Positions 4,148 to 60,649 of a stretch of 64,000 bases of DNA are shown piece by piece. The stretch lies in contig BROI01000018.1 of NCBI GenBank assembly GCA_027923505.1, forward strand, positions 124,001-188,000, given 5' to 3'. Under the pieces are notes generated by a model. It had not been told where the DNA came from and made no database searches. It worked only from the letters and a program-made list of their open reading frames with translations. Numbering within the stretch: position 1 is the stretch's first letter; each line of letters begins with the position of its first letter. The translations under genes were made by a program, and so were the position numbers. This stretch comes from Mayamaea pseudoterrestris. Its lineage: Eukaryota.

Positions 4148-5321
4148 TCTTTCAAACTTGTTTGGATGGCGGCGAGTTGTATTGGTAGTGCAAGTTGTGA
4201 TTGTCGTTGTGGGCTTTGTGTGAGCAAGAGAGATAACGATGATGTCAAAGAGAGATTGCAAATAGGTTGATATCGTATGGCCTTGATCAGTGGTGTCGGG
4301 GCTGTCTCGTTGAGAGAAGTGAGGCTTCACTTGCCTGTCAGCAGCAATGATGATGCAACAGCCTCGGCGCGGTGGGAGCGGTGCTTGATGGCGTGTGGAG
4401 TGGAATGGAAGACTAACAAATATCGGTCCATGCGAGCGCAGTAGAGCACTTGAAAACAATGTGCGAACGTTCGTGCTCAACTTCACAGATGCTTTTGTTT
4501 ATTTACCAAATGACCCAATTACGTCAGACTATGGTCGACTCCTTTCCTGGTGGCGCAATGGTAGCGCGTGACACTCCTAATGTCAAGGTTGCAAGTTCGA
4601 GTCCTGCTCAGGAAATATTTTTACTTTATCTACCGGTAGTATGATTCAAAAAGCATGAAGTCATCCTCGAGTATAAGGAAAAGAGCGTGCATGCCCTGTT
4701 GTGCGCAATCTATGTTGCGCACGTCAAGGTTTACTACATGGCCAACATGTTTAAAATTGTCAAAGCAAGCTGCGCCAAGTGCCTACCGTAGATATTGCCC
4801 CTGATTACTTGGATGCGCACAATGCGCGTGGCCGGTACTTTGGCGCGGCCAAAGCCTTTTATACTGTCATTACAAAGAATACGAAGCGGCTCTTTCCAAA
4901 TGTGATTACTGGCTTGCCTCGAGTCCTGGCGTCAAAGGAGGATGCTAATGAAGCTAGGTGGGGCGGAGTTGTTCCTGTCCCAAAAATGTTTCTTTCGACG
5001 CTCGATTGACAGGCTAAGGTTTGGATTGCGAACGACCTTGCCGGACTCTTCTGATTCTGAGTCGGGCTCTAATGCGAGTGTTGAGTTGTAGATTGATGGG
5101 GCACACTGGTCGCAGTGTGGCAGCATCAGTAAGTGTATGTCACTACATGCTGTTTGTGCTTGCAGGCAGAATGTAAATCCATACACTGGAATAATGAGAT
5201 TGTTAACTAGCGCTTTAATACAAAAACAACCAACTCCGTTACGTTCTATACTCGCCACGCTAGCGTCCTATCCTTTTTCGCGAGAAAAGGATGCATGGCT
5301 GCAACGCTCAATCACCCGACT

Positions 5322-5379
5322 GGCTTATCAGTTTTCGTTGATGCATTCATTTAATGCACCATCTAAACGTCATTCAGCC
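5322..5379 (-). promoter_or_regulatory. SECIS-like element (non-canonical spacing) in the 3' region of the 5555-5953 gene
   Basis: Minus strand GGCT-ga-ATGAC-GTTT-aga-TGGTGCATT-aaatg-AATGCATCA-acga-AAAC-TGAT-a-AGCC: helix I, ATGA/TGA core (5373-5370 / 5330-5328), helix II, apical AA 17 nt after ATGA. Confidence 0.5.
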
Positions 5380-5469
5380 GTGAGTTTCAATTGATTATCA
5401 ACAAGCACGATCCTTTCCTTTTATTCCCAATTCGAACACCACAATGCATCTAACAGGCATCATAGTGAA

Positions 5470-5542
5470 GGACCTGCTGGATCAATCCGGATCGCTTCAA
5501 CGCCAGCAGCGCATCATCGGAGGTGCATGATCCAGCAGGCCC
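5470..5542 (-). other. Long RNA hairpin just downstream of the TAG TAG stop of the 5555-5953 gene
   Basis: GGGCCTGCTGGATCA...TGATCCAGCAGGTCC: 12 consecutive Watson-Crick pairs, extended to 15 through a G-U that works only on the minus strand; inner TCCG/CGGA and CGCT/AGCG pairs. Confidence 0.65.
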
Positions 5543-5554
5543 AGCCTAGGCCTA

Positions 5555-5953
5555 CTAGAGACCAGAGACTGGGCAATTGGTCTGCCCGGCTCATCCAAAG
5601 CAGAATCCGCCTGTGCAAGAAGAGGAGAGAATGGATGATGGATGAGTATGCGTGCGGTGTGCGTTGTCGATGATCTCGGCGTGCGCGGTTCTGTTATTTG
5701 CGCTACCATTCGAGAGGTCGACACCACAACCTGTCCATCAACAGTAATTCGTGCAGGTTTTCACAATTCTTTGCTGTGACTTACACTTGCGCGCAGGATT
5801 GATGTTGGGGTCTGAAACGACGCTCGGGTTGTCGAGGCCCGTCATGCTCGCAGACTTGATTTCACTCATGCCCATTTGCACAGGACGAGCAGGGTTGAGA
5901 AAAGCGACGGCAGCACCGATGATAACGGCAGAGGTAAGGGCAAAGAGCTTCAT
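5555..5953 (-). CDS. Small plastid-targeted Cys-rich protein, candidate selenoprotein (in-frame TGA 5593-5591); exons 5953-5785 and 5610-5555
   Basis: Signal peptide MKLFALTSAVIIGAAVA-F; intron GTAAGT(5784)...CTTGCACAG(5611). Spliced C-terminus NPARKCGFCFG-TGA-AGQTNCPVSGL-TAG-TAG. If the TGA is a true stop the CDS ends at 5591. Confidence 0.7.
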
Positions 5954-6392
5954 GGTGGATTTCTTTCGAGAAGGCACGAAAGTATTATGATGGTGATGAT
6001 CGCGCAAGTAGTGGTGGATGGAAGGTCATCATCGATTCCAATTTGTCGCTGGTCGCACCGCGACAACACTCCTTTCGCCCACCTTAGCTATCCGCTTGCA
6101 AGCTGAACAGTGTCAAACGCATCATATCAGTACTTGTATAAGAAGTATGAAAATACGCGCAGTCAAGTCCAATCGCTATAATAAGACAATTTCAGCACAT
6201 AGAACGCAAACAAGACCTACTACTTAAATAGGGCATGCTACCCAATCGCCATGATCCATGTTTCCAAAGATAAGTACATGCATCCAGAGGTTTTTCCAAC
6301 CAGGTCCTGTATTACCTACTAGCATCTTAGAGTCCAGACACTGGGAAACTGGTTCCGCCAGAGCTCCTCAACAATGAAGACGTACTTGCTCA

Positions 6393-16851: not shown

Positions 16852-17631
16852 TCAATTCATGACCGGCCACTCCTTGAAACGCATGAAATGATTGCAATAG
16901 CCTGATGGATTCTTTTCGAGATAGGCCTGATGTTCGTCGTGCGCCGGATAGAACGTCTGAATGTCGTAAATTCCAGTCTCAATCTTCTTGCCGGAATACT
17001 TTATCTTGCCGGCATCGAGCAACGATTGCAGCTCCGTCTTGACCTTTCCAGCAATCTCCTTTTGCTGATCATCGCTGCAAAAGATTGCCGAACCATATTG
17101 CGATCCCGTGTCGTTGCCTTGGCGATCCTTGGTCGTTGGGTCATGGAACATGTAAAAGAACTTGATCAACTCTTCGAAATGCTTCTCCGGCTCGTTGAGT
17201 TCAACGTTTAAAACTTCCACGTGGCCCGTTGAACCAGAACAAACCTGCAATATGGCGATATGTTTAGTCAGTCATCGTGTTTTAGAAATTATCTAATGGA
17301 AGTGTGCAAACGCCAATCGTACCTGTCGATAAGACGGATTCTTCATGGCATTTGGATCGGGGCTCATAAAACCCACGGCGGCCGAGGCAATGGATCCGGG
17401 AAACATCTTTTGAAAGTCCTTGACGACATATTTTTCGGTACCCCAGTAGCAGCCGGCGCCCAACGCAAGAGTCTTGGAGAGTGGAATCATGTTGCTGCTG
17501 CTATCGGTCGTTGTGCTGTTCATACGATGAGATGGCGAAAGGTAGGCGGCAATCGATTTTGTTGCAGTCGAAGCGATTGAAGACTTGTTAGTAGTAGAAC
17601 GTAACAGCTCTTGTGAAAGTCGACGAAGCAT
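16852..17631 (-). CDS. msrA: Peptide methionine sulfoxide reductase A (Cys form); exons 17631-17323 and 17244-16852
   Basis: GAGCYWGTE active site, NPSYRQVCSGSTGHVE across the intron, HDPTTKDRQGNDTGSQY, EHQAYL. Start may be 17631 (transit-like) or 17523. Confidence 0.93.
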
Positions 17632-17924
17632 AAGTAGTTGGCGTACCGTTAAGTTTAAACTGGCTCCGATAACTTGTTCGAGTCGGAATGGCATGTTAAA
17701 CATCGAAGAAGATCGCGCGAGCGCCATGGTCGATCGTCGTCGCCAGCTCATCAAACGCGTGTCGGACCGGTTAAACCGAGTACCGTAGCGACTTCACTGA
17801 AGCTGCGCGTTTCAACCATCCATCTGCTTCATTTCTGGATTTGTTCCGCGAAAGACCTGTGGGTTTGGATTCTATCTCGTGTGGAACCTCATAAGTTAAT
17901 CAACGAGATAGCAAAGAGACTAAC

Positions 17925-25121: not shown

Positions 25122-28100
25122 CTGGTATTGACGATCATATTGTCCCAGCTCTCAAGATTGGCACTGCAGCTGGACTGGCAAAGACCCTTAGTGGCGAAAC
25201 CATTCTGCTTCTGTGTCACCAGTATGCTTTAAAGCGAGACGGACCGACGATTCATTGCCCGAATCAATTGCGCGCAATGGGACATCGCGTCGACGATATT
25301 CCGACCATGTTTGGCGGAACGCAACGAATTACGACGAACATTGAGGCTACGTTTTGCCATTGGCAATTCGCGATGGCCTGGTGTACTTGGACGTGACGAA
25401 ACCCACGTTCGATGATTTGGATAAGTATCCGACTGTCATCATGACGTCGGACGTGCCGTGGGACCCGACTGTTTACGATGTCGAGCACGCGCACGACGAT
25501 TTCGACGAACGAGATCATGATTATGGATCTTTCGACGAACGATTCGATGATGACGGTATCACGCACCGCAATCGTCACACGCCGACACGCACTGGCGACG
25601 AACTTGACGTACTGATCAATCGGTGCGTGCGACACGCTCAGTTTTCACGCGTTAATTTGCGGAAGCTAAGAAGCAAGGAACCGGACTATAATGCTCTTCG
25701 GCCGTACCTCGGATGGGTCCCGACTGAGCGCGTTCAACAGACTTTACGTCACACGGAAGCATGGTATCATCTCAGCGCACACCCGCGATTACCATTTCGA
25801 CACCTCACGAAATCACGATTTCCGGCCGCGAACGTTCAGCGGTTGCGCGAACTATTCGCCACGGACACGATACACTCTGACACGCCAGCTTTGGATGATG
25901 GAATTCTAGGGCAGGTGGGAGCTACTAAGATGCAGCTCTTTGTTGGACGAGAAAGTTTTTACACTTGCGGCTACCCGATGAAGTCGGAGAGCGAAATTTC
26001 AAACTCTTTAGAGTATTTTATCCGCGAAGTGGGCGCGCCTAACGGACTGCTCAGCGACAATGCCAAGTCGGAGACTGGCAAGGCTGTGAGGGATCTCTGT
26101 CGGATGTACAATATTCCTCAAGTGACCACAGAACCGGGTCATCCAGAACAAAATCCATGCGAACGTCACACGTCGCACATTAAGCCAATGATGGAGAACC
26201 TCCAACGAGATTCGGCTTCGCCAGGCCATTGCTGGGTTTTGCTGATTAAATTCGTAATCATGATACTGAACGTCCTCGCGACGAAATCGCTGGGATGGCG
26301 CACGCCAACGGAAGTTGCGTTCGGAAATCTGCCGGATATTTCGCCTTTGTTACATTTCAAGTGGTGGGAACCGGTCACGCTTGAGGCGCAGGGGAGTTTA
26401 CCCTCGGCGGTACGATCTGGCAACGGCCGATTCGTGGGCATCGCAGAGAATAGCGTCCGCACATGACTTTTCCGTTCTGACGGACGACACGCTTCAGGCG
26501 ATTCCGCGCTCCAACGTGGTCTCGCGCAGCTACTTGTTACCACGAGAGTTGCCTTCCTTCCCTGAGTCTGGAGGAGATTTCTGAAGAAGCTACACGCGCA
26601 AGCGAGCGAAATTTTGAAACTCCAGATCTCGCGACAGGACGCTACCATAGCACGCATGCGACAGAAAGTAGTCACGACAACTACGAAGGAAACGACGACG
26701 AAACAATTCCGATGGCGAACCACGCCAACGTACCAGCGAAGTTCTTCAGAAGGGCTGAGCAAGAATCAGGAATAAATGCCCTCTGTTCTCTCCAAGCGAA
26801 CTCATCGGACGCACGTTCGTAAGGGAACACGAAAACGGTCAGAAAATGCGAGCGACTGTATGCGAATATATCGAAGTACGCGATAACGAGCTACTCGAAA
26901 CGACGAAAGGTTTCCCTAATCCAAATGGGAGAGGAGCCAGCGAAAGACTTAATAAGTTACAACGAACTGTCGGATTTAATCGAACGACAGATGGACGAAG
27001 ATATACGAAACGATCCGGCGACTCAGTGGGTATTCACGAAGGTAATCGGACACGAGCTTAATTTGAAACCGAACGATCCGACATACAAAGGAAGTTCAAG
27101 TAACGTTCTCGTCGAATGGACTGACGGAACGACGACGTGGGAGCCTCTCGCGATCATGAAGAAGGACGATCCGATAACGATCGCAGAGTATGGACTCAAG
27201 CACGGCTTACTCGACAAGCCAGGATGGAAGCAGCTGGAGCATTACACTCGGAAGCGAAAGAAGTTTCGACAGATGGTAACAGCGGCGAAACGAAAATCGA
27301 AAGCAAACGGCGTACGCTACAAATTCGGCGTAAGGTTGCCGCGCAATTATAAAGATGCGAAAGCTCTCGACGAGATCAACGGCAACACGCTGTGGACGGA
27401 TGCGATTCGAACGGAATTAAATCAGATAAATGATTACGACACGTTCGCAGATCAAGGAGTCGGTAAGGTTATGCCGGCGCCGTGGAAACGAATAAACGTG
27501 CACATGATATTCGATGTCAAGCACGATTTGCGACGGAAAGCACGACTCGTTGCAGGAGGACATATGACAGAGCCGCCGAAGGATTCAGTTTACTCGGGCG
27601 TTGTGTCATTGCGAAGTCTACGAATGGTAGCGATGTTAGCGGAACTCAACGGTCTGGAACTGTGGGCAGCTGACGTCGGCAACGCATACTTGGAAGCGAA
27701 AACGAAAGAGAAGGTTTATATCGTGGCAGGTCCGGAGTTCGGGGAGCTCGAGGGTCACACGCTCACGATCGTGAAGGCATTATACGGTCTTCGCACGTCA
27801 GGCGCACGCTGGCACGAGCACTTTGCAGACACGCTCCGCGACATTGGCTTCATGCCGTGTATCGCAGAACCGGACGTGTGGATGCGCGATAAAGGCACGC
27901 ACTACGAATACGTTTGTGTGTATGTCGACGATTTAGCGATAGCGATGAAGAATCCGGAAGGAACTAACGGATCTTTTAATTGAGAACTACAACTACAAGT
28001 TGAAGGGCGTCGGTCCATTGGCATATCATTTGGGCGCAGACGTTTGGCGAGACGACGACGGCGTACTCTGCTTCGGAGCGAAGAAGTACGTCACAAGACT

Positions 28101-28998: not shown

Positions 28999-29014
28999 GT
29001 ATGACTTGAGGGGA

Positions 29015-29132
29015 GTTGCAGGATGCGAACGAAAACAGCGAAAATCGGGCAAGTCACACCGAATGTCCGATAGGGTGACACAGCGGCACTCGCGGCTCAC
29101 CACAGCCTCACGATCGCGTGATGCGTGGCAGC
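29015..29132 (+). repeat. Truncated 3' LTR
   Basis: Identical to 22751-22869 except one A in a homopolymer; stops at TGGCAGC, which is shared with the adjacent satellite. Confidence 0.9.
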
Positions 29133-32100
29133 TCCAACAAGTTATTGGATCTGCTGAGTCCCACCATGGCAGACAGGCTGGTGGATATGGGGGCAATAGT
29201 CACCACAGCATTGGCTCAAAATATCAACAAACATAAGTGGAATGGGTTGGATGGCTTAGCAGGCAAGGCTGATGATCCTGTAGCCAAAGCATGGTGCACT
29301 GCTTGCACATTCAACAACTTGTTGAATGTGCGGAGTCTCATGGCACAATGCTGCGTTCCACACCACAATTGACATGACTATTGGTCCAATTGTATCATAT
29401 GTATTTTGGTTCTAATATTCTTGGATCTGCAGGGCACTCTGGCAGTCTGTGTACCAGTTGAGGTGCACCGCTGGCAGACCTTACAAGTTATTGGATCTGC
29501 CAAGTCTCACCATGGCAGACATGCATGGGGATATTGGGGTGAAAGTCACCCCAGCATTGGCTCAAATGTCAACAAACATAAGTGGAATGGGTTGGATGGC
29601 TTAGCAGGCAAGGCTGATGATCCTGTAGCCAAAGCATGGTGCACTGCTAGCACATTCAACAACTTGTTGAATGTGCGGAGTCTCATGGCGCAATGCTGCG
29701 TTCCACACCACAATTGACATGACTAGTGGTCCAATTGTATCATATGTATTTTGGTTTCAATATTCTTGTGACTGCAGGGCACTCTGGCAGTCTGTGTACC
29801 AGTGGAGGTGCACCGCTGGCAGCTCCTACAAGATATTGGATCTGCCGAGTCTCACCTTGGCAGACAGGCTAGTGGATATTGGGGTGATAGTCACCACAGC
29901 ATTGGATCAAAATGTCAACAAACATAGAGAAAAGGGGTTGGATGGCTTAGCAGGCAAGGCTGATGATCCTGTAGCCAAAGCATGGTGCACTGCTAGCACA
30001 TTCAACAACTTGTTGAATGTGCAGAGTTGCATGGCGCAATGCTGCGTTCCACACCACAATTGACATGACTAATCGTCCAATTGTATCATATGTATTTTTA
30101 TTCTCAGGTCTGCAGGCCATTCTGGCAGTCTGTGTACCAGTGGAGGTGCACCACTGGCAGATCCAACAAGTTATTGGATCTGCCGAATCCTACCGTGGCA
30201 GACAGGCTGGCAGATATGGGGGTGATAGTTGTTCCAGCATTGACTCAAAATATCAACAAACATAAGAGGAATGGGTTGAATGGCTTAGCAGGCAAGGCTG
30301 ATGATCCTGTAGCCAAAGCATGGTGCACTGCTAGCACATTGTGCGGAGTCTCATGGCGCAATGCTGCATTCCACACCACAATTGACATGACTATTGGTCA
30401 AATTGTATCATATGTATTTTGGTTTCAATATTCTTGGATCTGCAGGCCAAATTTGGCAGTCTGTGTACCAGTTGAGGTGCACTGCTGGCAGCTCCAACAA
30501 GTTATTGGATCTGCCGAGTCTCACCATGGCAGACAGGCTGGTGGATATTGGGGTGATAGTCACCCCAGCATTGGCTCAAAATGTCAACAAACATAAGAGG
30601 AATGGGTTGGATGGCTTAGCAGGCAAGGCTGATGATCCTGTAGCCAAAGCATGGTGCACTGCTAGCACATTCAACAACTTGTTGAATGTGCAGAATCTCA
30701 TGGCGCAATGCTGTGTTCCACACCACAATTGACATGACTATTGCTCCAATTGTATCATATGTATTTTGGTTTCAATATTTTTGTGACTGCAGGGCACTTT
30801 GGCAGTCTGTGTACCAGTGGAGGTGCACCGCTGGCAGATCCAACAAGTTATTGGATCTGCCAAGTCTCACCATGGCAGACAGGCTGGTGGATATTGGGGT
30901 GATAGTCACCCAAGCATGGGCTTAAGATGTCAACAAACATAAGCAGAAAGGGGTTATATTGCTTAGCAGGCAAGGCTGATGATCCTGTAGCCAAAGCATG
31001 GTGCACTGCTTGTGCGGAGTCTCATGTCGCAATGCTGCGTTCCACACCACAATTGACATGACTATTGGTCCAATTGTATCATATGTATTTTGGTTTTAAT
31101 ATTCTCGGGTCTGCAGGGCACTCTGGCAGTCTGTGTACCAGTGGAGGTGCACCGCTGGCAGCTCCTACAAGTTATTGGATCTGCCAAGTCTCACCTTGGC
31201 AGACAGGCTGGTGGATATTGGGGTGATAGTCACCACAGCATTGGCTCAAAATGTCAACAAACATAAGTGGAATGGGTTGGATGGCTTAGCAGGCAAGGCT
31301 GATGATCCTGTAGCCAAAGCATGGTGCACTGCTTGCACATTCAACAACTTGTTGAATGTGCGGAGTCTCATGGCACAATGCTGCGTTCCACACCACAATT
31401 GACATGACTATTGGTCCAATTGTATCATATGTATTTTGGTTTTAATATTCTCGGGTCTGCAGGGCACTCTGGCAGTCAGTGTACCAGTGGAGGTGCACCG
31501 CTGGCAGCTCCAACAAGTTATTGGATCTGCTGAGTCCCACCATGGCAGACAGGCTGGTGGATATGGGGGCAATAGTCACCACAGCATTGGCTCAAAATAT
31601 CAACAAACATAAGCAGAAAGGGGTTGGATTGCTTAGCAGGCAAGGCTGATGATCCTGTAGCCAAAGCATGGTGCACTGCTTGTGCGGAGTCTCATGGCAC
31701 AATGCTGCGTTCCACACCACAATTGACATGACTATTGGTCCAATTGTATCATATGTATTTTGGTTCTAATATTCTTGGATCTGCAGGCCAATCTGGCAGT
31801 CTGTGTACCAGTTGAGATGCACTGCTGGCAGCTCCAACAATTTTTTGGATCTGCCGAGTCTCACCATGGCAGACAGGCTGGTGGATATTGGGGTGATAGT
31901 CACCCCAGCATTGGCTCAAAATGTCAACAAACATAAGAGGAAAGGGGTTGGATGGCTTAGCAGGCAAGGCTGATGATCCTGTAGCCAAAGCATGGTGCAC
32001 TGCTTGCACATTCAACAACTTGTTGAATGTGCGGAGTCTCATGGCACAATGCTGCGTTCCACACCACAATTGACATGACTATTGGTCCAATTGTATCATA

Positions 32101-34704
32101 TGTATTTTGGTTTTAATATTCTCGGGTCTGCAGGGCACTCTGGCAGTCTGTGTACCAGTGGAGGTGCACCGCTGGCAGCTCCAACAAGTTATTGAATCTG
32201 CCAAGTCTCACCATGCTAGACAGGCTGGTGGATACTGGGTTGATAGTCACCCCAGCATTGGCTCAAAATATCAAGAAACATAAGAGGAATGGGTTGGATG
32301 GCTTAGCAGGCAAGGCTGATGATCCTGTAGCCAAAGCATGGTGCACTGCTAGCACATTCAACAACTTGTTGAATGTGCGGAGTCTCATGGTGCAATGCTG
32401 TGTTATACACCACAATTGACATGCCTATTGTCCAATTGTATCATATGTATTTTGGTTTCAATATTCTTGTGACTGCAGGGCACTCTGGCAGTCTGTGTAC
32501 CAGCGGAGGTGCACCGCTGGCAGCTCCAACAAGTTATTGGATCTGCTGAGTCCCACCATGGCAGACAGGCTGGTGGATATGGGGGCAATAGTCACCACAG
32601 CATTGGCTCAAAATATCAACAAACATAAGTGGAATGGGTTGGATGGCTTAGCAGGCAAGGCTGATGATCCTGTAGCCAAAGCATGGTGCACTGCTTGCAC
32701 ATTCAACAACTTGTTGAATGTGCGGAGTCTCATGTCGCAATGCTGCGTTCCACACCACAATTGACATGACTATTGGTCCAATTGTATCATATGTATTTTG
32801 GTAAATTATTCCCGGGTTTGCAGGGCACTCTGGCAGTCTGTGTACCAGTTGAGGTGCACTGCTGGCAGCTCCTACAAGTTATTGGATCTGCCAAGTCTCA
32901 CCTTGGCAGACAGGCTGGTGGATATTGGGGTGATAGTCACCCCAGCATTGGCTCAAAATGTCAACAAACATAAGAGGAATGGGTTGGATGGCTTAGCAGG
33001 CAAGGATATTGATCCTGTAGCCAAAGCATGGTGCACTGCTAGTACAATCAACAACTTGTTGAATGTGCGGAGTCTCATGGCGCAATGCTGCGTTCCACAC
33101 CACAATTGACATGACTAGTGGTCCAATTGTATCATATGTATTTTGGTTTCAATATTCTTGTGACTGCAGGGCACTCTGGCAGTCTGTGTACCAGTTGAGG
33201 TGCACCACTGGCAGCTCCTACAAGATATTGGATCTGCCGAGTCTCACCTTGGCAGACAGGCTAGTGGATATTGGGGTGATAGTCACCACAGCATTGGTTC
33301 AAAATGTCAACAAACGTCAGAGGAAAGGGGTTCGATGGCTTAGCAGGCAAGGCTGATGATCCTGTAGCCAAAGCATGGTGCATTGCTAGCACATTCAACA
33401 ACTTGTTGAATGTGCGGAGTCTCATGGCACAATGCTGCGTTCCACACCACAATTGACATGACTAATCGTCCAATTGTATCATATGTATTTTGATTTAATA
33501 TTCTTGGATATGCAGGGCACTCTGGCAGTCTGTGTACCAGTTGAGTTGCACTGCTGGCAGCTCCTACAAGTTATTGGATCTGCCGAGTCTCACCTTGGCA
33601 GACAGGCTGGTGGATATTGGGGTGATAGTCACCCCAGCATTGGCTTAAGATGTCAACAAACATAAGCAGAAAGGGGTTATATTGCTTAGCAGGCAAGGCT
33701 GATGATCCTGTAGCCAAAGCATGGTGCACTGCTAGCACATTCAACAACTTGTTGAATGTGAGGAGTCTCATGGCGCAATGCTGCGTTCCACACCACAATT
33801 GACATGACTACTGGTCCAATTGTATCAAATGTATTTTGGTTTCAATATTCTTGGATCTGCAGGCCATTCTGGCAGTCTGTGTACCAGCGGAGGTGCACCG
33901 CTGGCAGCTCCAACAAGTTATTGGATCTGCTGAGTCCCACCATGGCAGACAGGCTGGTGGATATGGGGGCAATAGTCACCACAGCATTGGCTCAAAATGT
34001 CAACATACATAAAAGGAAGGGGTTGGATGGCTCAGCAGGCAAGGCTGATGATCCTGTAGCCAAAGCATGGTGCACTGCTAGCACATTCAACAACTTGTTG
34101 AATGTGCAGATTCTCATGGCACAATGCTGCGTTCCGCACCACAATTGACATGACTATTGGTCCAATTGTATCATATGTATTTTGGTTTCAATATTCTCGG
34201 ATCTGCAGGCCATTCTGGCAGTCTGTGTACCAGTGGAGGTGCACCGCTGGCAGATCCAACAAGTTATTGAATCTGCCAAGTCCCACCATGGCAGACAGGC
34301 TGGTGGATATGGGGGCAAAAGTCACCACAGCATTGGCTCAAAATGTCAACAAACCTAAGAGGAAAGGGGTTGGATGGCTTAGCAGGCAAGGATATTGATC
34401 CTGTAGCCAAAGCATGATGCGTTGCTTGCACATTCAACAAGTTGTTGAATGTGCGGAGTCTCATGGCGCAATGCTGGGTTCCACACCACAATTGACATGA
34501 CTATTGGTCCAATTGTATCATATGTATTTTGGTTTCAATATTCTTGGATCTGAAGGACAATCTGGCAGTCTGTGTACCAGTTGAGGTGCACTGCTGGCAG
34601 CTCCACCATTTTTTTTTATATCTGCCAAGTCTCACCATGGCAGACAGGCTGGTGGATATTGGGGTGATAGTCACCCCAGCATTGGCTCAAAATGTCAACA
34701 AACA
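29126..34704. repeat. Tandem satellite, unit ~345-347 bp, ~16 copies; each unit is a dimer of ~169 + ~176 bp subunits
   Basis: Anchor GATCCTGTAGCC at 29274, 29619, 29965, 30303, 30634, 30981, 31304, 31651, 31975, 32321, 32666, 33011, 33358, 33704, 34050 and 34397. Confidence 0.97.
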
Positions 34705-57200: not shown

Positions 57201-60200
57201 TTACGCCGTTTGAGCAACAGGTTGTTGCTGGCTCAGACTTTGCCATAGCGAAAAGACGGCATTTCGACGCATAGTATCTTCAAGGCCTTGATATAGCTCA
57301 AATGCTTCACGCTGATATTCTTGCACTGGGTCAAGACCCTGATATTTGCGCAGAAGCACGCTCTCTTTCAGATTCTCCATAGTTTGGAGGTGGTCGCTCC
57401 AAGCATTATCCAGCGTCACCAAGGTTATGTAACTGGCCGATCGGCCAAGTGATCCAGGCTTTTGCACCTTGGCATCCAATTCTTTTGACTTGGCGACAAA
57501 CACTTCATCAACGGCAACGGTGAGAAACGTTTCAATGCCATCCGCAGACTTTCCGGCAAGATCGTCAGTTTGTATCAAAGGTGCCACTGGTGGGAAAAAT
57601 TGTGTCATCTTTTCCAAAACTTTGTCAACGTTGACCTGACCGCTGCTGTCGGTTTGACCAGAAACAATTTCGGCAACAGTTCTTTGGTTGTACTTTTGCA
57701 TCGTATCTACAAGAGAGTCGGGAGAAGAAAAGAGGATTGATCTGCGGCGCGAGTAGATGGAACGACGCTGACTGTTCAGAGTCTCATCAAAATTAAAGAT
57801 TTCGCGCCGAATCTCGCGGTACTTTTCTTCGACTGCCTTTTGAACCTTGTCGAGCGCGTCCGACACTTGCGGTGCTTCAACCGGCATGTCTTCGCTGACA
57901 CGAAATGTTTCCAAAATCTTGTTGAGCTTATCACCTCCAAATATGACAAACATGTCGTCCTCAAACGAAAGGAAGAAGCGAGATGACCCAGGGTCGCCCT
58001 GTCGCCCTGCTCGTCCTCTTAATTGCTGATCAATTCGGGAACTCTCATGTCGGTTTGTGCCCATGACATATAAACCACCAAGCTTCTTCACAATTGCCTT
58101 TTCCTCCTCAAGAACAGGCGCATACGTTTCTTTAACAGCATCGGCGGCATCGCGAAGCTTGACTACGTAATCTGCGTCGTCATCGGCCTCCGTAGTGTCA
58201 AAAGCAACCGTGAGTAGCTCGTCTAAATCAATGCTTGTCATGTCTGGCCCAAGCGCCTTCTTGATCGATACAGCAGCATCCTTTAGCATGAACTTAATAT
58301 CATCCGATATTTCGGCCGGAAAGTAAGCTGCAGTAGGAGATGGTGGAAGAGCACTGACCTCGTCCGGCTTCAGCACGCCCTCCTCTAACAAAACAGATCT
58401 AGTCTTGATTCGAGACATGGTTCTGGCGCACCCACCGAGAAGAATATCAGTGCCGCGACCTGCCATGTTCGTAGCGACAGTCACGACGCCTGCGCGACCC
58501 GCTTGAGCAATGATCTCAGACTCGCGGGGTGCATTTTTTGGTGAGGCATTGAGGGTTTCGGCTTGGATGCCAGCCTCGGCAAGTTCCTTCACGAGCGCTT
58601 CACTTTGAGCGACTGACGTCGTTCCGATGAGGCACGGTCGACCGTCCGACTGTCCTCCTTTCACGCCCATTACTTCTTTAATGAGTGCTCGATTAGCAGC
58701 CGCCCTTGTTTTAAACGCTACATCTGGGTAATCTCGTCGTGCGATCGGAAGCGCTGTTGGCACAGGAGTCACTCCAAGACCATAAGTCTGCGCAAACTCT
58801 TCAGCATCCGTCAAGGCCGTACCAGTCATTCCCGACAATCGCGTAAATTGTCGGAAGAGTGCCTGATACGTAACTTTGGCAATCACTTTGCTTTGTTCGC
58901 TCACCTCAATTCCTTCTTTTGTTTCAATGCTTTGATGCAAGCCGTTTGACCATCGCCGACCATCCAAGACGCGTCCAGTAAATGAGTCAATGATGCCAAC
59001 GCCCTTTGACTTGCCTGAGCTGTCTTTCAAAATTGTATACTCCACATCAATGTTAAACAGCTCTTTCGCCTTTATGGCATTAGTGACGTATGGCGCCCAC
59101 GCTTCCCCGTCAGGTCCAATCGAGAACAGAGTGTCGACGCCCAAGGCAGCACCGGCATCCCGATATCCCTGCTCTGTAAGAATACAGTTCTTATTCTTCA
59201 AATCAACCGTGTAGTGTACATTCTTGTTCAAGGCTTCGGCCAACTTGCAGGCTGTCCTGTACTTGCTGCCCGGGGCTGGCACCTGTTTGCTGATAATGAG
59301 AGGTGTGCGTGCCTCATCGATCAAAACAGAGTCCGCCTCGTCTACTACGCAGAATCCATTGAATTCTCCAGCTCCGCCGGGTAATACTGTCTGCTCGGGA
59401 CTGAGCGCCAAGTGGTCGCGCAGGTAATCGAATCCGAGCTCCGAGTTAGTAACGTAAACGACATCACATGCATATGCCTTTTGTCGCTGCTCCTCCGTCA
59501 TTCCGGACTGGATAAGACCAACCGTCAGGCCAAGGAAGCGATGTATTTGCCCCATCTTTTCCATATCGCGCCGTGCCAAGTAGTCATTTACAGTAATGAC
59601 AAAGGATGTTTTGCCGGTCAGTGCATTCGCGTAACACGGAAGGGTCGACACTAGCGTTTTTCCTTCACCGGTAGCCATTTCTGCTAGCCGTCCGTCATGA
59701 AGGATAAGTCCTCCAACAATTTGAACGTCATAATGGCGGAGCTCTAGGACGCGCCTAATAAAACGAAATGGAAAGGCGATTGTGAGCCTGACATTGTGCA
59801 TGTAGATGCACGCTCCGTCTAACGTACCATGAAGCTTCCCGAACAACCGCAAACGCTTCCTCCAACAATGGACCATTCAAATCTTCGCCGTTTTGTAACC
59901 GCTTTCGAAATTCCGTCGACTTGGCTTTTAGTTCGTCATCGCCAAGGTCTTCAATGACCGGCTCCAAAGCGTTGATTCGGTCAACACGGTTCTGCAGCTT
60001 GGCCAAGTATTTTGTGTTTTCTTTCGCTCTCATTGATTCATCCGTTCCGGTCATAAAGTCCTCAAAGACGCCGAAAAGGGACGTCGAAGATGATGACAAT
60101 GTTCTTCTTCGATTATGAAGCAAAGGCGATGAGTAGTCGCCTTGCGATGAGCATGCATAGTTTCTGGTCGCGGATCGCACGATGGTTGCAAACTGGGGTT

Positions 60201-60273
60201 GATTGAGAGCTTGGAAAGTCATAGCTGTCGGAGCTGCGATCAACAATAACGCCCACATTCGATGCGGAATCAT
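57201..60273 (-). CDS. secA: Nucleus-encoded plastid-targeted preprotein translocase SecA; exons 60273-59828 and 59754-57201
   Basis: AFAVVREASWRVL across the intron, EMATGEGKT, NDYLARRD, VDEADSVLIDEARTPLIIS, ATNMAGRGTDI, QLRGRAGRQGDPG; signal-peptide-like N-terminus. Start may be 60258. Confidence 0.95.
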
Positions 60274-60649
60274 TGTGAGAAAAGCAATTTGTTCCGTGAC
60301 AACAAAAATGTGGTGCAATTGCGCTCTTTGGATCTGATATTGTCAATAGATAGCTGCTCGGTCTGATTATTGAGAGGTCGATGTCTACTCTAGAGCTCAA
60401 TAACAGTTGTATAGAGCCAAGTGGAGTAATTACTGATCAGCAATTTACCCTATGTCATGGTCAACGCCGAGGCAGCTTTACAGCTTTTGTCGTCGTCGCG
60501 ATGATTCATTTCGCTGACGTATTGATGTGAAAGCGTGAATGAAAGCTAACGCGGGAGTCATGCACACGAGACGCCTCACTCGTTCGCCAAACGCATTGCC
60601 GACGCAGCGGCTCCTCGTCCACAATATACCCAAGTAGTCGTGTCCCAAC

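Follow-up and report, generated by a model that had tools for sequence, protein, structure and literature searches.

Does the TGA at 5591-5593 on the minus strand of this contig end a very small protein, or is it read as selenocysteine (Sec)? The codon lies in a two-exon gene within the 64,000-nucleotide stretch of Mayamaea pseudoterrestris DNA that we analyzed, hereafter the window, and a preliminary description made from the letters alone had proposed that it encodes Sec in an undescribed, plastid-targeted micro-selenoprotein. On the evidence set out below, we consider it likely that this small gene, which apparently belongs to a family not listed so far, reads its in-frame TGA as Sec by means of a SECIS element in its 3' untranslated region (UTR), and that its product combines a secretory signal at the N-terminus, probably one for the plastid, with a CxxCxxU..CP center.

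The gene occupies the minus strand, to which its coordinates refer throughout. Starting with the ATG (5953-5951), 56 codons plus the initial base of the codon for Cys57 make up the coding part of exon 1 (5785-5953), whose end is set by the joint in the sequencing contigs described below. A 174-nt intron (5611-5784), beginning with GTAAGT and ending in a polypyrimidine tract and CAG, interrupts the Cys57 codon in phase 1. By spliced translation, exon 2 starts with the remainder of Cys57 followed by G-F-C-F-G (5594-5610) and leads into the TGA, the proposed Sec63, after which 11 codons encode A-G-Q-T-N-C-P-V-S-G-L (5558-5590) ahead of a double stop, TAG TAG (5552-5557). Spliced, the frame runs through 62 codons, the TGA, 11 more codons and TAG TAG, giving a 74-codon pre-protein on read-through; unspliced, it meets a stop 16 codons into the intron. 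Our analysis recovered the whole gene model of the preliminary description, from its coordinates and splicing to the 62-codon frame that reaches C-G-F-C-F-G-TGA, the peptide beyond and the double stop.

Four sequencing runs (X1-X4) from a single study cover the locus. Their library type is unrecorded and none is registered as RNA, and we treated X3 and X4 as transcript assemblies solely because their contigs skip the intron. One contig from each of these two runs joins 5609/5610 to 5784/5785 with exactly 174 nt missing, and the skipped segment is bordered by CT..AC on the plus strand, or GT..AG as read along the gene. The spliced contigs span 5196-5846 in X3 and 5210-6003 in X4; contigs from X1 and X2 retain the intron. 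Because the X3 and X4 contigs skip the intron and span both it and the proposed SECIS, the intron is removed as predicted and the transcript continues ~355 nt beyond the stop, past that element. The part of the 3' UTR that they cover is 5196-5551, and the 5' UTR extends at least over 5954-6003, the spliced X4 contig ending at 6003 and the segment 6003-5953 containing no ATG on the minus strand. We conclude that this is an expressed, spliced gene whose transcription, splicing and 3' UTR extent are demonstrated. The preliminary description had named polyadenylation upstream of the downstream hairpin, which it placed at 5322-5379, as an observation that would count against Sec; the transcript contigs extend past that hairpin. 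Letters that vary among the run contigs spare exon 2 and the hairpin, with no variants in the 75-nt hairpin versus five elsewhere in the 359-nt UTR, but they are too few to show constraint (probability by chance 0.31, our own calculation).

An expressed frame that contains a TGA may simply end there. The codon would then be an ordinary stop closing a 62-residue pre-peptide at C-G-F-C-F-G, with any resemblance to other genes downstream of it, and any hairpins, due to chance or to an RNA feature. TGA does normally terminate translation in this genome, and in the window it ends six of the 18 open reading frames (ORFs) that have Pfam support. The preliminary description had pointed to the sequence around the codon, stating that the same GGA-TGA-G context occurs at the Sec codon of a selenoprotein S gene in the window. 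We found no such gene. GGATGAG is present at two sites only, 3417 on the plus strand and 5593 on the minus strand, and the Pfam family Selenoprotein_S was absent both from the 103 ORFs of at least 110 amino acids and from the 144 ORFs scanned out of 222 that end in TGA and are 55-109 amino acids long, the remainder (78) falling mostly in known genes or repeats.

We then asked whether the coding sequence on either side of the TGA is conserved, and scanned metagenome contigs with a degenerate pattern specifying G-F-C-F-G, then TGA, TGC or TGT, five codons and C-P. The scan returned 30 matches, against ~27 expected by chance on our own estimate, and 29 of the 30 showed no further likeness to the gene. 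The other match, L008 (locus G+C 0.55), is a deeply diverged homolog of the window gene. Pattern scans of viral contigs and of genome contigs gave no matches. L008 has an ATG at 724, a hydrophobic N-terminus and an exon 1 frame that ends in P-A-K-K plus one base. Its intron, deduced from sequence and not from RNA, is 97 nt long with GT..AG borders and splits the Cys codon in phase 1, exactly where the window intron does, and its exon 2 reads G-F-C-F-G, TGA, A-G-D-T-R-C-P-V-G-G-I, TAA. The TGA is at the identical position, and the stop falls at the identical codon, as in the window gene. The same metagenome contig also encodes, at 3-590 on the minus strand, a divergent neighbor that language-model features place with HTTM-like membrane proteins (score 0.94, in clusters that are mostly bacterial) and that has no Pfam match at E<=0.1.

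The N-terminal halves, introns and UTRs of the two genes cannot be aligned, and the genes are therefore far apart. What they share is the last ~35 residues, L-D-N..P-A-[RK]-K-C-G-F-C-F-G-U-A-G-x-T-x-C-P-V-x-G-[LI]. Outside the residues that the search pattern had specified, the common elements before the TGA are P-A-[RK]-K-C, L-D-N, the intron position and the signal-like N-terminus, and those after it are A, G, T, V, G, L/I and the position of the stop codon. Among the 10 codons compared before the TGA, two are identical, seven synonymous and one non-synonymous; the 11 codons after it divide into four identical, three synonymous and four non-synonymous, so that seven of 11 residues are the same, in a comparison of two sequences for which the pattern had fixed G-F-C-F-G, TG[A/C/T], C and P. 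Synonymous and identical codons occur on either side of the TGA, and the protein is therefore under selection both before and after this codon. Two further observations had been expected to weigh against Sec, namely TAA or TAG in orthologs at the position of the TGA and a freely diverged peptide beyond it: the sole ortholog found keeps TGA, and the downstream peptide is conserved in it, including the pattern-fixed C-P.

These comparisons are difficult to reconcile with an ordinary stop. Seven identical residues lie in what would be untranslated sequence, followed by a stop codon at the same position, and changes at the conserved residues are confined to third positions, while introns, UTRs and N-termini have diverged beyond alignment. 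An RNA structure selected for its own sake does not explain the likeness either. The preliminary description had drawn attention to a 5-bp hairpin, GGGCA..TGCCC (5571-5587), and this is indeed present, beginning 3 nt past the TGA; the argument built on it fails, however, as the hairpin is not kept in L008. Since it is unconserved, the RNA reading fails to account for the resemblance of the two genes, and the hairpin itself is probably incidental.

Is there also a signal in the transcript that could direct Sec insertion? The 3' UTR of the window gene contains a hairpin (5314-5385; -26.6 kcal/mol, z -2.64) that lies 220 nt past the TGA, within the transcribed region. It comprises a helix I of at least six pairs, AUGA (5373-5370) facing UGAU (5330-5327), a helix II of ~14 pairs and an apical loop AAAUG. 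The AUGA/UGAU core fits UGAN/KGAW, the SECIS core consensus given in PMC3753652. The SECISearch rule places an unpaired AA 10-13 nt after the core (PMC2375036), whereas the apical AA of this hairpin lies 17 nt after AUGA, and Rfam gave no SECIS match to it, even in a 111-nt slice at E<=10. The element is thus SECIS-like and non-canonical: the preliminary description correctly saw a SECIS-like element ~220 nt downstream, but the 17-nt spacing and the Rfam result separate it from a standard SECIS.

The corresponding region of L008 gave a clearer match. At 1084-1144, 41 nt past the stop, L008 aligns over the full length of the Rfam SECIS_1 model (positions 1-64) with 25.8 bits, which corresponds to E 0.0016 in a 101-nt search and falls short of the gathering score of 35 bits. 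In this element the AA follows AUGA by 12 nt, inside the 10-13 nt rule, and the 3' core, UGAG, departs from the KGAW consensus. Longer Rfam searches lose such matches to speed filters; at E<=10, window 4800-6200 and the entire L008 locus yielded no SECIS. At the gathering score, the whole window yielded only a tRNA-Arg (anticodon CCT; 4543-4616 on the plus strand), which sits ~600 nt past the 3' end of the small gene, on the opposite strand. A SECIS descriptor of our own, written after both elements had been examined, matched four times in the 128 kb of the window (both strands), the window hairpin among them, and once in 103.7 kb of the 30 pattern-match loci, that single match being the element in the L008 3' UTR. 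The other matches to this loose descriptor, at 17072-17015 on the minus strand (inside an MsrA coding region), 17527-17580 on the plus strand and 43710-43654 on the minus strand, were taken as background. A second stable hairpin, of 15 bp, lies between the stop and the SECIS-like element (5470-5542 on the minus strand; -40.4 kcal/mol for 5460-5555, z -2.14). We considered it as a SECIS and rejected it, since it does not form a K-turn and Rfam gave no match to it.

For the ordinary stop, then, the window hairpin can be cited, which breaks the 10-13 nt rule and lacks an Rfam match, as can the fact that just two sequences are in hand and that no homolog with Cys at this position was found. Set against the conserved downstream peptide, and against a full-length SECIS_1-like match 41 nt past the stop in L008, we regard termination at this TGA as unlikely. 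Conservation after the TGA shows translation and not the identity of the residue inserted, and a near-cognate tRNA could in principle insert Cys or Trp by selenium-free read-through. We consider this highly improbable, given the SECIS_1-like element after the L008 gene and the K-turn hairpin after the window gene. Exchange of Sec and Cys is moreover typical in rows of Cys residues, as at this TGA.

We therefore return to Sec as the preferred identity of residue 63, in what we take to be a nuclear gene of a diatom. The best named matches to the eIF6 ORF of the window all come from diatoms (Seminavis, Fistulifera, Fragilaria, Nitzschia and others), at 77-86% identity and with no identical sequence among them. 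UGA63 would be decoded by the ordinary eukaryotic route, through the SECIS hairpin of the 3' UTR; for the organism of the window we infer this insertion, together with the targeting and redox chemistry considered below. The locus resembles eukaryotic selenoprotein genes in having an in-frame UGA with protein conservation on both sides (window versus L008) and a K-turn hairpin in the 3' UTR of the same transcript, the L008 hairpin aligning to Rfam SECIS_1. Unlike those genes, the window hairpin has a helix II longer than the rule permits.

We next looked for relatives of the protein. Neither the two read-through frames nor the two exon 1 frames matched any Pfam family at E<=10, and a protein search with exon 1 produced no candidates. 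Searching a word-indexed protein library with the two-sequence alignment gave two candidates, neither at E<=10, and an HMMER profile of that alignment found none at E<=0.001 among 1.84 billion representative proteins. A form with Cys at the Sec position was absent from the protein libraries and from the 30 pattern matches, which permitted TGY; as tests, the library searches are weak, the peptide being very short and predicted proteins ending at the TGA with ~60 residues. Literature searches on the motif, on CxxCxxU and on diatom, plastid and Phaeodactylum selenoproteins returned no description of such a protein, which may nevertheless be among the families listed in PMC7539508, such as 'Hypo' or 'USGC'. 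In the parts of the two papers available to us, PMC7539508 reports 20-44 selenoprotein genes in four diatom genomes and PMC2375036 lists 16 selenoproteins for Thalassiosira pseudonana, and the family is absent from the selenoprotein family names given there. The two genes probably represent a selenoprotein family with a CxxCxxU center that is apparently undescribed.

Where would such a protein act? Codons 1-17 (5903-5953) encode a signal-peptide-like N-terminus when the translation is judged by eye, with MK, a hydrophobic core and A-V-A, followed by F18. L008, also read by eye, has A-G-A and then L at +1. According to PMC4329603, the +1 residue may be F, W, Y or L under the ASAFind rule, and both residues are thus permitted. 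The ~20 residues after the cleavage motif include many S, T, A, R and K and few acidic residues in both sequences. The signal peptide and this transit-peptide-like stretch would lead the protein into the ER and most likely onward to the complex plastid.

Plastid targeting of the window protein is accordingly plausible, and a selenoprotein that stops short of the plastid stroma, being secreted, retained in the ER or periplastidal, is possible but in our view somewhat unlikely. Such a location would agree with the fact that the evidence comprises a signal-peptide-like N-terminus and a +1 residue read by eye, and with the L at +1 in L008, which departs from the usual F. Stromal import fits better with A-V-A followed by F-L-N-P, which conforms to the ASAFAP-type cleavage motif (a rule taken from PMC4329603), and with the S/T/A/R/K-rich composition of the following segment in both sequences.

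For the chemistry of the center, we favor a redox function. The overlapping CxxC and CxxU, together with the downstream C-P, would form a small thiol/selenol redox center on a short flexible peptide. Sec would be the attacking residue, forming a selenylsulfide with the Cys three residues upstream that could then be passed to the next Cys.

The preliminary description had called the motif ferredoxin-like and proposed a mature peptide of ~40 residues that binds metal or Fe-S, or senses redox, through Sec. On the metal-binding side of that proposal, the four Cys and Sec residues would coordinate an Fe-S cluster or some other metal, Sec being one of the ligands. Four thiol or selenol groups do fall within 13 residues, and the C-P is conserved in both sequences. 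A 4Fe-4S cluster can be bound in vitro by short peptides that combine CxxCxxC with a fourth Cys. The candidate shares with the CxxCxxCxxxCP motif of bacterial-type 4Fe-4S ferredoxins the C-x2-C-x2-[C/U] and a later C-P, but it differs in having a last spacer of five residues instead of three, a single motif and no match to Fer4 or any other Pfam family at E<=10. The description as ferredoxin-like was thus not borne out; the profile search of 1.84 billion proteins found no relatives, and thioredoxin-like selenoproteins usually carry C-x-x-U as their redox motif. We consider metal binding in the manner of a ferredoxin quite improbable.

A redox role can be compared with two groups of known selenoproteins. 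SelW, SelT, SelH and SelM are thioredoxin-like selenoproteins with CxxU, which the candidate matches with C-F-G-U. However, its conserved ~35 residues are too short for a thioredoxin fold and have no Pfam match, and its Sec is 12 residues from the C-terminus. In SelK, SelS and the GCUG arm of thioredoxin reductase, Sec is near the C-terminus. The candidate resembles these in the placement of Sec, in a tail that is probably flexible and in an adjoining resolving Cys, but it is far smaller and lacks both a membrane anchor after the signal peptide and a G-rich tail. It also differs from SelS and SelK in having no Pfam Selenoprotein_S match and in that its sole hydrophobic stretch is the N-terminal signal.

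The most specific form of the proposal, a mature selenopeptide of ~35 residues in the diatom plastid whose Sec is either a ligand of an Fe-S cluster or other metal or a selenium-dependent redox switch, is a conjecture that we put forward very tentatively and think doubtful as a whole. If it were true, selenium shortage would cause the same mRNA to give a truncated peptide ending in CxxC, and selenium supply would alter the form that reaches the plastid. New eukaryotic selenoprotein families are, to our knowledge, seldom found. Frames that are very short and split by introns tend to escape gene callers and selenoprotein pipelines, and the present case suggests that small members are undercounted in algal selenoproteomes. 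The two sequences supply a concrete motif, C-x2-C-x2-U-x5-C-P, and a test system.

Several other features of the window were recorded. An MsrA gene with an intron lies at 16855-17793 on the minus strand. MsrA is a selenoprotein in some algae; the catalytic motif here has the Cys form (G-C-Y-W), and the gene therefore provides no internal control for SECIS detection. A SecA gene at 57204-60342 on the minus strand has a nuclear setting: its ORFs are split in the manner expected of an intron, and genes for the ribosomal proteins S4e and S13 adjoin it. It presumably encodes an organelle-targeted translocase. Finally, at 29000-34600 on the plus strand, a unit of 324-347 bp is repeated ~16 times in tandem. 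The copies are 60-98% alike, the array contains short repeated ORFs, and a Copia-type retroelement (rve and RVT_2 matches at 25345-27980) lies just upstream of it.
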